Shown: in pieces, positions 24,000-28,054 of the stretch
Layout: the number at the start of each line of letters is the position of its first letter
Position numbering within the stretch: the stretch's first letter is position 1
Assembly (NCBI RefSeq): GCF_026000115.1
Contig: NZ_AP026867.1
Location: forward strand, 2,905,716 to 2,969,715
Length of the DNA stretch: 64,000 bases
Source: Aureispira anguillae
Lineage (GTDB): Bacteria; Bacteroidota; Bacteroidia; Chitinophagales; Saprospiraceae
Reading direction: 5' to 3'
Translations under genes and position numbers: made by a program
The notes under the pieces: model-generated
What the model was told of the DNA's origin: nothing
Databases searched by the model: none
What the model saw: the letters and a program-made list of their open reading frames with translations, nothing else

Positions 24000-25439
24000 T
24001 TATAAAGCAGTAGTCGTATTTAATTGTACTAATCCTATTTGGCTCGTATTCGTATTCGCCTCAAAGGTTCCAGTAAATGTAATCACGGCTTGGTTGTTGG
24101 CCGAATTGGTAGCAGCAATAACCGTAGCTGCCAGCTCATTGCTTCTATTTCCTATCGTTCCTTGATAATAAGGCCAACCACTTCGCAAATCAAAATTAGC
24201 CTCCAAATTCACAATTCCAATGTCTGTACCCAACTGATCTTCATGCGTTACTGCAATTACAAACCCTTCATTGTTAGGCAACCAATCAATAGAAGCTGCT
24301 TCGTAAGTAGATCCAAGTGACAAACTAGATGGCGCCGTAAGCCCTAAAAATTTAAAGCCGTAGGTGCTGCTATTGGTTCCATTCGGATACTGTGTATTTA
24401 AGGCTTCATCTACTTGAAGAACAAAAACCTGATTGGCATTGACTAAGCTGCTATTTTTAGCATGTCCTGTTATTGTTATTTTCTGAGTGCTAGGGTTGTA
24501 GGTAGAATGCCCTCCTGCTAAATCATAATCTTGATCTCCAAAATACTTTGGGCTCAAAGGCATTCCATTATCCTTTCTCATTTTAATGGCTGCCAATTTG
24601 CTGTTGAATCCATTGTTGCCATCTTTTTCTTGAACCGTACCAATTACCAAATAAGCATCTGGTAAAATCTGAATAGAAGTCCCATAATCCTTTCCTGAAA
24701 AGCCATACGTTGAGTTTCCTGCAAACCAAAGCGGGGTAAAAGAATCGTCCAATACTGTCGTAAAAATATCCGTTAAATCATAAATTCCATTGTCTGGGTC
24801 AATGGGCTTGTTGGTAGTAATATCTGTTGTGTATCCTGTCAATACGTATTTGATTACGCCATTATTTTCATCCAATTTAAAATCAGACAGCATCTCTGTT
24901 GATTCTTTTCCTTCTTTTAATTCGGTTCCATTAACAACACTAAGTCCTCCATTCAAATCCAACTCATACAGCACAATTTTACTTTGGTGTTTGGTTCCTA
25001 CAGTACTTGCTGCATTAGGATAAGCAACATACGTTCTATTCCCAGCAATAACATAACCTCCATTATTGGGCAACAATTCTACCTTAACAGCTAGCTCGTC
25101 ATATCGCACATATTCATTGCTCAAAGCCCCTGTTCCCATTCCTGCTGCTTTGCCCAATAAAACCGACCATTGCTCGATGCCAGCCGCATCTGTTTTTATC
25201 ACCAATATATCTGCTTCCACCTCTGTTGCTTGCGAATAAGCACTGCCCACCATAATATAACCGCCATCTGGTGTTTGTTTAACATCTGCGGCGATCTGCT
25301 TGGAAGAGCTGCCATACTGCTGGACAAAATCAATGTGTGCATTGGTTGGTGTAAGATTGGGGTCTTGCTGACAAGCAGTATGAAACCCTAGGATAAAAAT
25401 TAGGAATAACCACGATTGTATTTGGGTTGTTTTTATCAT
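24000..25439 (-). CDS. lipoprotein with beta-propeller-like repeats, function unknown
   Basis: Signal peptide with a lipobox Cys (LGFHTAC), and recurring GGY-type strand motifs. Confidence 0.55.
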   Translation of the reverse strand: MIKTTQIQSWLFLIFILGFHTACQQDPNLTPTNAHIDFVQQYGSSSKQIAADVKQTPDGGYIMVGSAYSQATEVEADILVIKTDAAGIEQWSVLLGKAAGMGTGALSNEYVRYDELAVKVELLPNNGGYVIAGNRTYVAYPNAASTVGTKHQSKIVLYELDLNGGLSVVNGTELKEGKESTEMLSDFKLDENNGVIKYVLTGYTTDITTNKPIDPDNGIYDLTDIFTTVLDDSFTPLWFAGNSTYGFSGKDYGTSIQILPDAYLVIGTVQEKDGNNGFNSKLAAIKMRKDNGMPLSPKYFGDQDYDLAGGHSTYNPSTQKITITGHAKNSSLVNANQVFVLQVDEALNTQYPNGTNSSTYGFKFLGLTAPSSLSLGSTYEAASIDWLPNNEGFVIAVTHEDQLGTDIGIVNLEANFDLRSGWPYYQGTIGNRSNELAATVIAATNSANNQAVITFTGTFEANTNTSQIGLVQLNTTTAL

Positions 25440-25493
25440 AATATTTATTTTTTTAATTAAAAGAGATAACCTCCATTTGTTTTAAGTCAAAAT

Positions 25494-27470
25494 TTAAGGG
25501 CATTCAGGCCCCATTGGAGGGATTGTTACTGTTGTTCTAGTTTGGATAGATCTAACAACAGTTGTGACAAGATCAAACTTCACTAGATTATCTTTTACTC
25601 CCTCTCTCTCTGCATCGGTTGCTAACCATGCAACACCATCTACAGCACGCCCTCGATTGCTCTTCGTTAGGGTAACATTAGGTACCACTTTCCGTATTGC
25701 TTCAATTCTATCACTCATAATTGCAGGGTTCCCCCCCCAACCTCTTGCTCCTGTAAAGACAGTTACTTCAATCGTAACTTGTGTAGAGACCACTGTTCGT
25801 TGATCGGTGACGATATTAATGGTATTTCCATTGGGACCAACAACTTGTTTGGTACTGCTATTTGTCCAAGGTGAAGTATCTCTAACAAAGGAACCTCCCC
25901 TGCCAGCTACTGCGTCCCGAATTGCTTTTGTTGCAGTACCAGTATTTATAAAAGAAGCCAATCCTGAATTAAATTGTACCCGTCCAAGCGATTTAGATTC
26001 CGTATTAATCGTTGGTTTTTCATTTTTAGTTGTTGTATTGGTAGAGTTGACCAACCAAACTAATGGTTTGACTTTAAAATCAGTCGCCTTTAGGTTGATC
26101 GAAAAATGATTGCGGGCAGCCGTAAAATCACAAGGTCTTTTAGCACGACTAGGAATTCCCTGTCCATTACCTAAAATTTGAGGAAGATTCTTATTTTCTA
26201 GATTCCCCTTATTCTGCTCATATACATTATAATAAATGATATTTCCTCCTTGGTTGCATTGAGGATAATACTTTTTGGTAATAATTCGTTTTGCAGTATA
26301 TCCTACCACAATGCCATTTTCTACTGTAACAGGCTCATAATCTTCATCCGTAATGATAATATCATAACATAACTGTCCATGCGTAATAAAAGTTAACTGT
26401 TTAAAGTCAACATACCCTTGTTCGTTTTTGCAAGACAAAATAACCTGGTGTTTTTCCCTAGGCTCAAAAGTATGATCTAGTTGGATTGTTCCCGTAACGG
26501 TTACGACATTCTTACCTTTCCATTGCCCTGTTTTTTTTCCATTCTTATCCAAAATAGGGGTAGCTTTTTCTGTTTGCACCAATTGTTGGTTGATAATTTC
26601 ATTCGTATCCCCCGTTCGAACATTTTCAGATTCCAGCTTAATTTCTACATAGTTATCTTTGGCAGGCAAGATGATATTTTCTATCGTTGCTTTAAAAGGG
26701 ATTTCAGTTGCCCCCAACTCTTTTTTAGTTTTATCAAAAAAGTATATTGACTCATTTTTAGGAGTAGGAGGATCGATATTAATTTTCAACTCATACCCTT
26801 CAATTACTTCCTTTTTAGGAGGTTGAGTAGTTCCTACTTTTGAGGTAAAATAATCTATATTGGGTGCTGCAACGATACCATTTATTCCCTTACAGTTAAA
26901 CTTTAAGGTATATTGATGTGAAGCATTCCCAGCTGGAACAGGAGGAGTAATAACAGCAGAGTATTCAACAATATTGATGGTATTATCGTTTTCAGATGCA
27001 ACTTGTGTCTGAACAATTTTCACCTTTGTTTGACTAGAAAGATTTACTAGCTTGCCATCTTGCCAAATACTTAAATAAAACTGTTGATCACGTTCTTGGA
27101 TTTTGCAAGGATCTGTTATGTTTAGTTCTTTGGGACAAGACATATTTTCTATTCGGAACTTTACTTTGATGGAAAAATTAGCGTCTTTATCCGAAATAAC
27201 AATAGGATTCGAATTGCCCGAAGGAGTTGTATCGGTCGTTACAATGGCAATCTTTAAGGGCAACTGTTTTTTAACGGTAACGTCCTTCTTAGCTTTTTTT
27301 TGCAGTAACAAACAAGTTTTTTTAGCCTTTTCTATCGCTACTTTAGCAGCTTTTAATTGATCTTTTTCTAGGACATCCGCATGCGCTACTAATTCTTTGT
27401 AAGCAACCGTTGCTGCCTCGTAAACTTTGCGTGCTTTGAGATATAATTCTTGATAATTTTTATCTGACAT
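25494..27470 (-). CDS. hypothetical 658-aa protein, with an N-terminal coiled-coil then a beta-rich region and no signal peptide
   Basis: A long ORF with codon usage matching its neighbours. It starts 29 bp downstream of the 184-aa gene on the same strand. I recognise no motif. Confidence 0.6.
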   Translation of the reverse strand: MSDKNYQELYLKARKVYEAATVAYKELVAHADVLEKDQLKAAKVAIEKAKKTCLLLQKKAKKDVTVKKQLPLKIAIVTTDTTPSGNSNPIVISDKDANFSIKVKFRIENMSCPKELNITDPCKIQERDQQFYLSIWQDGKLVNLSSQTKVKIVQTQVASENDNTINIVEYSAVITPPVPAGNASHQYTLKFNCKGINGIVAAPNIDYFTSKVGTTQPPKKEVIEGYELKINIDPPTPKNESIYFFDKTKKELGATEIPFKATIENIILPAKDNYVEIKLESENVRTGDTNEIINQQLVQTEKATPILDKNGKKTGQWKGKNVVTVTGTIQLDHTFEPREKHQVILSCKNEQGYVDFKQLTFITHGQLCYDIIITDEDYEPVTVENGIVVGYTAKRIITKKYYPQCNQGGNIIYYNVYEQNKGNLENKNLPQILGNGQGIPSRAKRPCDFTAARNHFSINLKATDFKVKPLVWLVNSTNTTTKNEKPTINTESKSLGRVQFNSGLASFINTGTATKAIRDAVAGRGGSFVRDTSPWTNSSTKQVVGPNGNTINIVTDQRTVVSTQVTIEVTVFTGARGWGGNPAIMSDRIEAIRKVVPNVTLTKSNRGRAVDGVAWLATDAEREGVKDNLVKFDLVTTVVRSIQTRTTVTIPPMGPECP

Positions 27471-27499
27471 TATTAATTTAGTTGTTGTTATAAAAAAGC

Positions 27500-28054
27500 T
27501 TATACTTGAATTCCTAATTTTTGCATTAGGCTACTAAAAGTGGCAAAAGTGGCTTGTGCCTTCTGCTTTTTTTGAAGAATTTCAGCAGGCTCTTGAGCAG
27601 CAAGTGGCGTTGTATCTTCCTCTTCTTCAGATTCTTTTTTTGCAGGAGCTGCTTTGGCTACAACCAACTGCACATTCGCTTTATTGAGTAGCGCTTTGGC
27701 TGCTTTGTTAATTTTATCTGCCTTCGCACTCCCCTTTTCAACATTAATCTGCAAGGTAGCCTTATTGCTAGTCGGCAACTTTTGATAATAAGCTTTGCCC
27801 AACAAGGTAAATTTTTTGTTCTCTTTAACTGCTGCTTTAGCAAAGATCTCCCATGGCATTGTTGCTGTACACAACATTACTAAAGGATGCACTGTTCCAT
27901 CAGGAAATTGATGCTTCTCGTTGGCAAAAAACCAAACGGCTTGCTCTGCTGTAGCACAGGATTGAGGAGCTAATTTCATCAACCTAATAAATTCTTTTTT
28001 GTAAGCTTCGAATTTTAATTCAACTGCTTTGGGACTTTTTAACTTTGTTTTCAT
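27500..28054 (-). CDS. hypothetical 184-aa protein with a Lys/Ala-rich C-terminal tail
   Basis: A globular N-terminal domain of about 90 aa followed by a KA-rich, low-complexity tail. It is the first gene of the cassette, downstream of the phased repeats. Confidence 0.55.
   Translation of the reverse strand: MKTKLKSPKAVELKFEAYKKEFIRLMKLAPQSCATAEQAVWFFANEKHQFPDGTVHPLVMLCTATMPWEIFAKAAVKENKKFTLLGKAYYQKLPTSNKATLQINVEKGSAKADKINKAAKALLNKANVQLVVAKAAPAKKESEEEEDTTPLAAQEPAEILQKKQKAQATFATFSSLMQKLGIQV

Follow-up and report, generated by a model that had tools for sequence, protein, structure and literature searches.

A conserved gene pair with a constant handle, an exchangeable body and a putative LytTR-type control region in Aureispira anguillae

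What could three adjacent minus-strand genes of Aureispira anguillae be doing, when family searches place none of their products? The genes encode a 184-aa protein, a 658-aa protein and a 479-aa lipoprotein. They lie in a 64-kb window (the whole stretch of DNA analysed) on a 7.58-Mb contig of this predatory gliding bacterium (Saprospiraceae, Bacteroidota). All three proteins are 100% identical to A. anguillae entries in NCBI/UniRef, and UniRef names the third ‘Lipoprotein’. The original prediction, made from the DNA letters alone, described them as an uncharacterized cassette. We tentatively prefer to read the locus as a LytTR-controlled operon that would encode an adaptor and a handle-tagged, swappable payload exported by a non-Sec route, the handle being the first 61 residues of the 658-aa protein; we regard this account as possible rather than probable. 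Related loci and proteins are referred to by our own L and P numbers.

The handle and the exchangeable body

Two contigs from two different sequencing runs, L002 and L017, reveal how the middle gene is built. The left-hand 2.6 kb match at 99.8% identity and the right-hand 8.3 kb at 99.5%, and the sequence in between cannot be aligned. On the left the match breaks off right after codon 61 of the middle gene; on the right it resumes about 25 nt beyond the stop codon of that gene, a little before the lipoprotein gene begins. The body in L002 is of the beta type, as in the window. L017 carries an unrelated all-helical body in a 328-aa protein (P0134), and the handle is identical in P0002 and P0134 despite their unrelated bodies. 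The 184-aa gene, the 61-aa handle and the lipoprotein are all constant across the swap. The alternative cassette also brings a separate 171-aa open reading frame (ORF; L017 8347-8862), which is found with the helical cassette only. Its product has two strongly hydrophobic, putatively transmembrane segments (14-32 and 43-68), and roughly 100 further residues form a soluble tail. Beyond a weak match to DUF6404 (E = 0.018) it found no family, and it is a candidate immunity or partner protein. The helical allele was found in three samples (L004, L017 and L099). L099 is a marine metagenome and represents the same species as L017; the version in L004 is 55% identical (P0004 vs P0134), belongs to a different lineage and sits behind a P0007-like 184-aa gene. 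Both body types therefore appear to be old and to segregate in nature. We note that P0004 (L004 338-1747) contains an internal duplication of about 140 aa, in which residues 329-465 align to P0134 188-328 with 37% identity; P0134 has a single copy of this segment.

The alignments indicate that the 658-aa protein is modular and that natural populations exchange its body as a cassette. It had been described as a coiled-coil start with a beta-rich remainder, a description that did not include this exchange of the body from codon 62 to just past the stop. Distant profile matches divide the protein into the handle, a spacer and a C-terminal module (C-module). The handle is the most conserved part, with 90/75/66% identity against 71/51/42% over the whole protein, and P0004 and P0134 share with the 658-aa protein only residues 1-61. 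The secondary structure predicted by AlphaFold2 (AF2), at low confidence, has helices at 6-29 and 36-63 followed by an all-beta region, in line with the helical start and beta-rich continuation expected earlier. The spacer gave weak profile matches to the Calx-beta proteins P0137 and P0140. The C-module alone is common to P0132, P0133 and P0135, where it stands behind unrelated N-termini, and thus appears to be independently mobile. Nine cysteines are present in the 658-aa protein, eight of which are kept among its three full-length relatives. Both Cys447 and Cys657 are missing from P0135, which suggests that these two residues form a pair. In the aligned relatives the C-module contains no invariant His, Asp, Glu or Ser constellation hinting at catalysis, and family scans of the 184-aa and 658-aa proteins found no recognisable catalytic motif, as originally noted. 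The C-module has no match in PDB, Pfam or PHROG. No C-terminal sorting domain of the type IX secretion system (T9SS; Por_Secre_tail/CHU_C) was detected in the 658-aa protein by a scan that does detect genuine T9SS cargo elsewhere in the window.

Other proteins carry the C-module or part of it. P0133 (369 aa; L013 4603-6281, and also L014 and L015) is a minimal form, consisting of a coiled-coil N-terminus and the C-module. Its coiled coil was considered as a homologue of the handle and rejected, since no similarity is detectable. The P0133 gene is followed by that of a tetratricopeptide repeat (TPR) protein, whose start overlaps the P0133 stop by 10 nt; this partner differs from that in the window. 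P0141 (396 aa) carries the second half of the C-module only, together with N-terminal ‘IQKK...SFF’ motifs. We take its N-terminus to resemble DUF4157 toxin leaders associated with extracellular contractile injection systems (eCIS), an unconfirmed lead for which no Pfam support was found.

Searches of Pfam, NCBIfam, PHROGs and PADLOC returned nothing significant for the three window proteins, the alternative cassette proteins or the distant C-module relatives. Sequence and profile searches of PDB were likewise empty for the 658-aa family, the 184-aa family, the C-module, P0004 and the lipoprotein profile. The absence of known structural or housekeeping homology for the 184-aa and 658-aa proteins, anticipated in the original prediction, thus held across four hidden Markov model (HMM) libraries and PDB. 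In a word-indexed search of 5.8 billion clusters the 658-aa protein had three relatives and the 184-aa protein five, and an exhaustive HMMER profile search of 1.84 billion representative proteins gave only 14 matches to the 658-aa family. A scan of a genome collection for the 184-aa family returned no locus; A. anguillae itself is seemingly absent from that collection. Outside A. anguillae the module occurs in just a few uncultured relatives.

Structure prediction, a check that had been proposed for both proteins, yielded secondary structure but not usable folds. Both AF2 models are of low confidence (predicted local distance difference test score, pLDDT, 44 and 45) because the alignments contain only 3 and 6 sequences. 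From these models only the predicted secondary structure was used. The fold searches were therefore uninformative: Foldseek returned generic tandem immunoglobulin (Ig)-like matches with a template modelling (TM) score of at most 0.14, or nothing, and these were not treated as evidence.

Cassette replacement behind a conserved N-terminus is also seen in phage receptor-binding proteins and in defence hotspots. The 658-aa protein could then be a tail-fibre or receptor-binding protein of a phage or tailocin remnant with the 184-aa protein as its chaperone, or the trio could be an anti-phage system at a variable hotspot. The weak viral Foldseek matches do include tail and baseplate proteins; they too score no higher than a TM of 0.14 and come from a low-confidence model. 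Neither PHROG nor PADLOC gave a match, tblastn found none in 50,697 phage and 72,556 plasmid records, the 184-aa family scan found no relative in IMG/VR, and the 64 kb contain no integrase, tRNA or phage genes. Synteny with a two-component system is moreover stable across species. We consider a phage or defence origin very unlikely.

A different explanation starts from the predicted Ig-like beta-sandwich body, which lacks a catalytic motif. The protein might be a polymorphic, non-toxic determinant of the cell surface or of cell identity, displayed or exchanged among filament cells for adhesion, kin recognition or matrix building; we judge this unlikely. On this reading the 184-aa protein would be its chaperone and the two-transmembrane protein or the lipoprotein the cognate partner, in the manner of IdsD/IdsE pairs. 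Two old and divergent alleles are kept in related lineages (P0004 vs P0134), one of them travelling with the two-transmembrane partner, and the best Foldseek matches are to the matrix and pilin proteins RbmA and BcpA, at very low TM. These fold matches are generic, however, and derive from the pLDDT-44 model, and just two alleles were seen. Known surface proteins of Bacteroidota have Sec signals and T9SS C-terminal domains, and the 658-aa protein has neither. The filamentous, gliding habit of Aureispira (PMC12428579) would suit such a determinant.

The 184-aa protein and the conserved gene block

In every locus the handle-bearing gene is preceded by the 184-aa gene, whichever body follows. Wherever a contig with a 184-aa homologue continues beyond that gene, a handle-bearing gene starts 12-30 nt further downstream; the gap is 29 bp in the window, 29-30 bp in relatives and 12 bp in L009. 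Conservation of the pair, which was to be surveyed, is borne out by this constant adjacency, and clear homology to a known structural or housekeeping family, the outcome that would have refuted the original prediction, was not found. A constant 184-aa gene beside a constant handle is what would be expected if the two products recognise each other. We propose that the 184-aa protein may be a dedicated adaptor or chaperone for the handle. It has no significant Pfam or NCBIfam match and so no membership of DUF4123, DUF1795/Eag or DUF2169, and a search with its fold model gave no match better than E = 0.07.

The low-confidence AF2 secondary structure of the 184-aa protein comprises an alpha/beta domain (1-134), a disordered linker and a C-terminal helix. 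The protein had been described as ending in a Lys/Ala-rich tail like that of histone H1. We rejected this description: the K/A-rich stretch is internal (residues 105-141) and predicted to form a helix and a strand, and at the true C-terminus an acidic linker of variable length (142-156) leads into an amphipathic helix that is conserved (157-184, nt 27503-27586). The family scan gave no match.

Neither the 184-aa protein (N-terminus MKTKLKSPK) nor the 658-aa protein (MSDKNYQELY) has a Sec signal. Both N-termini are hydrophilic and both ORFs are already the longest possible, which upholds the earlier statement that the first two proteins have no signal peptide. The lack of a signal would also suit cytoplasmic, regulator-controlled proteins that are never exported, such as a stress scaffold or a nucleoid or envelope complex, with the swap as ordinary locus variability. 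Both proteins are basic (pI 9.2-9.6), secretion-system genes are not found nearby, and selection on all the genes is of the ordinary purifying kind. LytTR systems such as LytSR and YpdAB also govern non-secreted functions, which counts for this possibility. Against it, the swap junction coincides exactly with the boundary between handle and body and spares the 184-aa gene, the alternative body is imported together with a membrane-protein ORF, and the C-module recurs behind different N-terminal helical segments. Eight conserved cysteines together with Ig-like domains would also be unusual for a cytoplasmic bacterial protein. A purely cytoplasmic role seems unlikely to us, and export, the preferred reading, is the case taken further below.

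The three genes are real and constrained by purifying selection, since codon-level comparison with orthologues gave ratios of nonsynonymous to synonymous substitution (dN/dS) of 0.12-0.27 for all three (about 0.13 for the 184-aa gene). Three co-oriented minus-strand ORFs had been called at these positions (Table 1), and each stands. The second gap, between the 658-aa and 479-aa genes, is 54 bp. Short conserved gaps, one promoter-like region upstream and one terminator downstream make co-transcription of the three genes plausible. The 29-nt gap argues for co-transcription over the strict translational coupling first suggested. The terminator expected downstream was located as a strong hairpin with a U-run. 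The MITE-like (miniature inverted-repeat transposable element) feature beyond it is a perfect palindrome with two copies in the window, the second at 62470-62516 (chance expectation 0.01). This 47-bp element (TTAGATATTAGATCCCAATTA and its reverse complement, around a 5-nt loop) is intergenic in both copies and may belong to a repetitive extragenic palindromic (REP)- or MITE-like repeat family of the A. anguillae genome; it is a boundary feature, outside the operon. An Rfam scan of 19000-30000 found no riboswitch or small RNA.

Table 1. Positions of the genes, protein modules and candidate control elements in the window
Feature	Position	Strand	Remarks
Three 10-bp direct repeats, ACACTTACAC / ACACTTATAC / ACACTTACTC	28190-28241	-	21 bp from start to start, 11-bp spacers
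Candidate -7 promoter box (TAnnTTTG), TATCTTTG	28152-28159	-	30 nt downstream of the third repeat
184-aa ORF	27500-28054	-	First gene; basic product, pI 9.6
658-aa ORF	25494-27470	-	Middle gene
Handle, codons 1-61	27288-27470	-	Predicted N-terminal helical hairpin; constant across cassette swaps
Beta-sandwich (Ig/Calx-beta-like) spacer, residues ~73-365	26376-27254	-	All-beta in AF2 prediction; low confidence
Orphan C-module, residues ~366-658	25497-26375	-	Ends PECP; conserved Cys368, Cys405, Cys447, Cys657
479-aa ORF	24000-25439	-	Third gene; acidic lipoprotein, pI 4.5
Intrinsic-terminator-like hairpin and U-run	23934-23973	-	Folding free energy (dG) -26.1 kcal/mol, z = -3.45; equally stable folds in 0/200 shuffles
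Perfect palindromic repeat element (REP/MITE-like)	23788-23834	.	Between operon and kinase gene
Sensor histidine kinase	20647-23634	-	Reg_prop propeller, Y_Y_Y, His_kinase/HATPase_c
Response regulator with LytTR domain	19877-20623	+	Response_reg 3e-16, LytTR 1.7e-14

The conserved unit appears to be larger than the trio. Four contigs are long enough to show it (window/L001, L002, L005 and L017), and in all of them the order is 184-aa gene, handle gene, lipoprotein gene, histidine kinase gene and LytTR regulator gene, with the kinase gene directly downstream of the lipoprotein gene and the regulator convergent with the sensor. The lipoprotein measures 472-479 aa across these contigs. The genes outside this block are not the same: in the window and L005 it is flanked by a desaturase and, at the opposite end, an endonuclease, and in L002 and L017 by Metallophos/R2K at one end and a methyltransferase and bestrophin at the other. 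Because the order holds while these flanks differ, we take the conserved unit to be the five-gene block.

The lipoprotein is not specific to the pair. Its N-terminus, MIKTTQIQSWLFLIFILGFHTAC, contains a signal peptide and lipobox, and Cys23 is nearly invariant in the family, so the predicted lipoprotein stands. The accompanying claim of a beta-propeller fared less well, as 12 family members gave no direct Pfam match. Blade-like motifs of the type GGY(I/V)xxG recur about every 65 aa, internal-repeat z-scores are 3-5, and DUF5122 or PQQ_2 occurs in distant partial relatives; from these features the protein is probably a 7-bladed beta-propeller. The family is a wider Saprospiraceae one, with 256 matches that include A. 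anguillae paralogues. For about 20 full-length members from other genomes (Aureispira, Saprospira, Saprospiraceae), none of the other four genes was encountered within 8 kb. The lipoprotein thus appears to be an accessory component, not an obligate partner of the pair. It was considered as the cognate immunity protein and rejected, being unchanged when the body swaps, beside either cassette type, and widespread without the pair. Two or three lipoprotein paralogues form tandem arrays in other Aureispira/Saprospiraceae metagenome-assembled genomes (L021, L023, L029 and L031, around 8001-12600). One family member gave a weak match to Ntox44 (E = 0.0023) that is probably spurious.

Further neighbours of the block were also noted. 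The fatty-acid-desaturase/hydroxylase-like membrane protein (28283-29134, -) has a GntB-like best NCBIfam match, far below the cutoff. Divergent from it is the gene of a 609-aa protein (29446-31275, +) with a weak Glucosamine_iso/6-phosphogluconolactonase N-terminal domain. The two genes keep this arrangement in L003 and L005 but are not syntenic in L002 and L017. Elsewhere in the window lie a 2541-aa T9SS cargo, a giant surface protein with Reelin subrepeat-B, BNR/Asp-box, PKD-like and Por_Secre_tail domains (49800-57425, +), and a 1501-aa protein with a CHU_C type-IX sorting domain (111-4616, +), whose immediate downstream neighbour is a PorP/SprF-family gene (4731-5705, +). A cargo gene with a PorP neighbour is the usual pairing for T9SS adhesins.

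The repeats and the two-component system

The array of phased repeats had been taken as the upstream boundary of the cassette. The array is real, but it is more than a boundary: it is likely the operon's own regulator site, kept in 13/13 loci. Its three units, ACACTTACAC, ACACTTATAC and ACACTTACTC, are the sole exact matches in the window. They are followed by a box of the form TAnnTTTG, the Bacteroidota-type -7 promoter consensus. When the upstream regions of the 184-aa gene were aligned for six divergent loci, the sole conserved islands were two direct repeats 21 nt apart and TAnnTTTG, whose TA..TTTG columns are invariant. The third repeat is confined to the A. anguillae clade; the two promoter-proximal ones are conserved. 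A degenerate pattern for this pair of boxes, derived from six of the loci, matches a single time, at a constant position and orientation, in all 13 loci that include this upstream region; these loci are not all independent. It occurs in none of 87 other loci (1.08 Mb). Binding sites of LytTR regulators are paired direct repeats with 11-13 bp between them, located about 10 bp upstream of the -35 element (PMC6193735, PMC4227749). The repeat number and spacing seen here (10-bp units, 11-bp spacers) agree with the definition of a LytTR site in PMC6193735. The third repeat would lie about 10 nt upstream of the expected -33 position, where no clear -33 TTTG is visible. The pattern of conservation makes it likely that the repeats are a regulator-binding site within the operon's promoter.

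A suitable regulator is encoded within the block. A 248-aa orthologue of the LytTR regulator lies beside the kinase in L002, L005 and L017. Given the LytTR-type geometry of the repeats and this syntenic regulator, we infer, as the most economical reading, that the kinase/LytTR pair would drive the operon. Since the repeats are likely regulator sites, the functional unit would take in the neighbouring kinase and LytTR regulator genes as well.

Three functionally unrelated orphan genes side by side, with repeats of no regulatory role, would be compatible with the independent life of the lipoprotein family elsewhere. It is hard to reconcile with the adjacency of the 184-aa and handle genes in every locus, with a five-gene block kept across different flanks, or with repeats and a -7 box that are the sole conserved intergenic islands and form a pattern exclusive to these loci. 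We give chance neighbourhood hardly any credence.

Two further observations concern the regulatory genes. At least one more A. anguillae pair of a Reg_prop/Y_Y_Y/His_kinase sensor and a LytTR regulator exists, at L018 622-4385 and about 6 kb from a paralogous lipoprotein (P0016), which points to a family of two-component systems of this kind in the genome. In the window, a 417-aa DNA/RNA non-specific endonuclease (Endonuclease_NS, 2.5e-49; 18599-19852, +) is encoded on the strand of the LytTR regulator gene and 24 nt upstream of it. L005 (14158-15396) shows the same order, which L002 and L017 lack. If co-transcribed with the regulator, the nuclease might take part in the same response in this predator.

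Proposed role and comparison with known systems

The preferred reading, a regulated and exported payload, can be set out as a sequence of steps. On an extracellular cue the kinase would phosphorylate the LytTR regulator, which would bind the repeats and switch the operon on. The 184-aa adaptor or chaperone would recognise the constant handle, probably through its conserved C-terminal helix, and handle and adaptor would direct the exchangeable payload to a non-Sec route of export from the cytoplasm. Export is suggested by the missing signal peptide taken together with the Ig-like domains and paired conserved cysteines, the co-travelling membrane ORF and an architecture like that of polymorphic effectors. 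A contractile injection system would be the most plausible route in a genus that kills prey with one. Aureispira does so with an atypical contractile system whose type VI secretion system (T6SS) effectors are still unknown (10.1101/2024.01.29.577165), and payloads of contractile systems use N-terminal loading signals of 50-70 aa (PMC11495950). The lipoprotein would be a co-expressed accessory, acting in immunity, as a receptor or as an envelope partner, and would not be obligate.

Several points weigh against this scheme. Family scans found no toxin, enzyme, PAAR, Rhs, MIX, FIX, LXG or DUF4157 domain and no known adaptor family, and the 64-kb window contains no contractile-system gene. No small immunity-like ORF is private to the beta-type allele of the window. 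With two body types found the polymorphism is limited, and the lipoprotein does not co-vary with the body and often occurs without the pair. The handle is predicted to be helical, whereas the signals of Photorhabdus virulence cassette (PVC) payloads are disordered. Neither low-confidence AF2 model lends structural support. The 658/184 family is also missing from the other Aureispira genomes searched, and the module therefore cannot be a general ixotrophy factor.

Polymorphic effector loci of the T6SS consist of an adaptor (DUF4123/DUF1795), an effector marked by MIX, FIX or RIX, and an immunity gene. Our locus is similar in having a small gene directly upstream of a large protein that lacks a signal peptide, in the conserved N-terminus with an exchangeable body that is swapped between near-identical strains, and in the small membrane-protein ORF that arrives with one body. 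It differs in that no PAAR, VgrG, Rhs, MIX, FIX, DUF4123, DUF1795, DUF2169 or toxin domain was found, the 64 kb are free of T6SS genes, a dedicated immunity ORF is missing for the beta-type body and just two body types are known. LXG toxins, exported by the type VII system of Firmicutes, have a helical LXG region of about 200 aa, small helical Lap partners that are encoded directly upstream and needed for export, and downstream immunity genes. Here too a predicted helical N-terminal region is fused to variable bodies and a small putative partner is encoded directly upstream. The likeness is architectural only: there is no LXG/WXG100 homology and the handle has 61 aa rather than about 200. To our knowledge, Bacteroidota have no type VII system.

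The payloads of the Photorhabdus PVC carry an N-terminal segment of about 60 aa in front of unrelated payloads and have no Sec signal (PMC11495950), much as here, and Aureispira uses a contractile system of the same superfamily (10.1101/2024.01.29.577165). The PVC signals, however, are disordered and recognised by the AAA ATPase Pvc15, in contrast to a predicted helical handle with a 184-aa non-ATPase partner, and our locus is not beside a contractile-system cluster. With the LytTR-controlled bacteriocin and toxin operons (AgrA, ComE/BlpR, HdrR/BrsR) the locus shares direct repeats with an 11-13 bp spacer and a regulator beside its putative target (PMC6193735, PMC4227749), as well as products that have no housekeeping role. 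The sensor is not a peptide-pheromone receptor but a periplasmic double-propeller/Y_Y_Y kinase. The promoter is of the Bacteroidota type, the repeats number three (in the A. anguillae clade) rather than two, and the products are large proteins instead of peptides. By sequence-based tests the locus is outside every named family. By analogy it resembles a polymorphic effector module, with an adaptor, a marker-tagged effector and possibly an immunity gene, built from orphan modules.

A bolder version of the export scheme would make the handle and the 184-aa protein a new cargo-recognition route of T6SS subtype iv in ixotrophic Saprospiraceae. The locus would then be the first effector module of that machine, with two interchangeable payloads of new folds, and the propeller-type kinase and LytTR regulator would switch it on upon sensing prey or host cues. 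We regard this version as rather improbable.

The generality of these observations is limited by the occurrence of the module in A. anguillae and a few uncultured relatives. Within that range the locus offers new modules without known relatives, namely the handle, the C-module, the helical body and the 184-aa protein, and if the handle proved transferable it would be usable as a delivery tag. It also provides one of few candidate assignments of a regulator to its target for the abundant LytTR two-component systems of Bacteroidota. How Aureispira kills captured prey is partly understood, and the locus gives testable ideas on how cargo may be selected and on what may trigger its expression.

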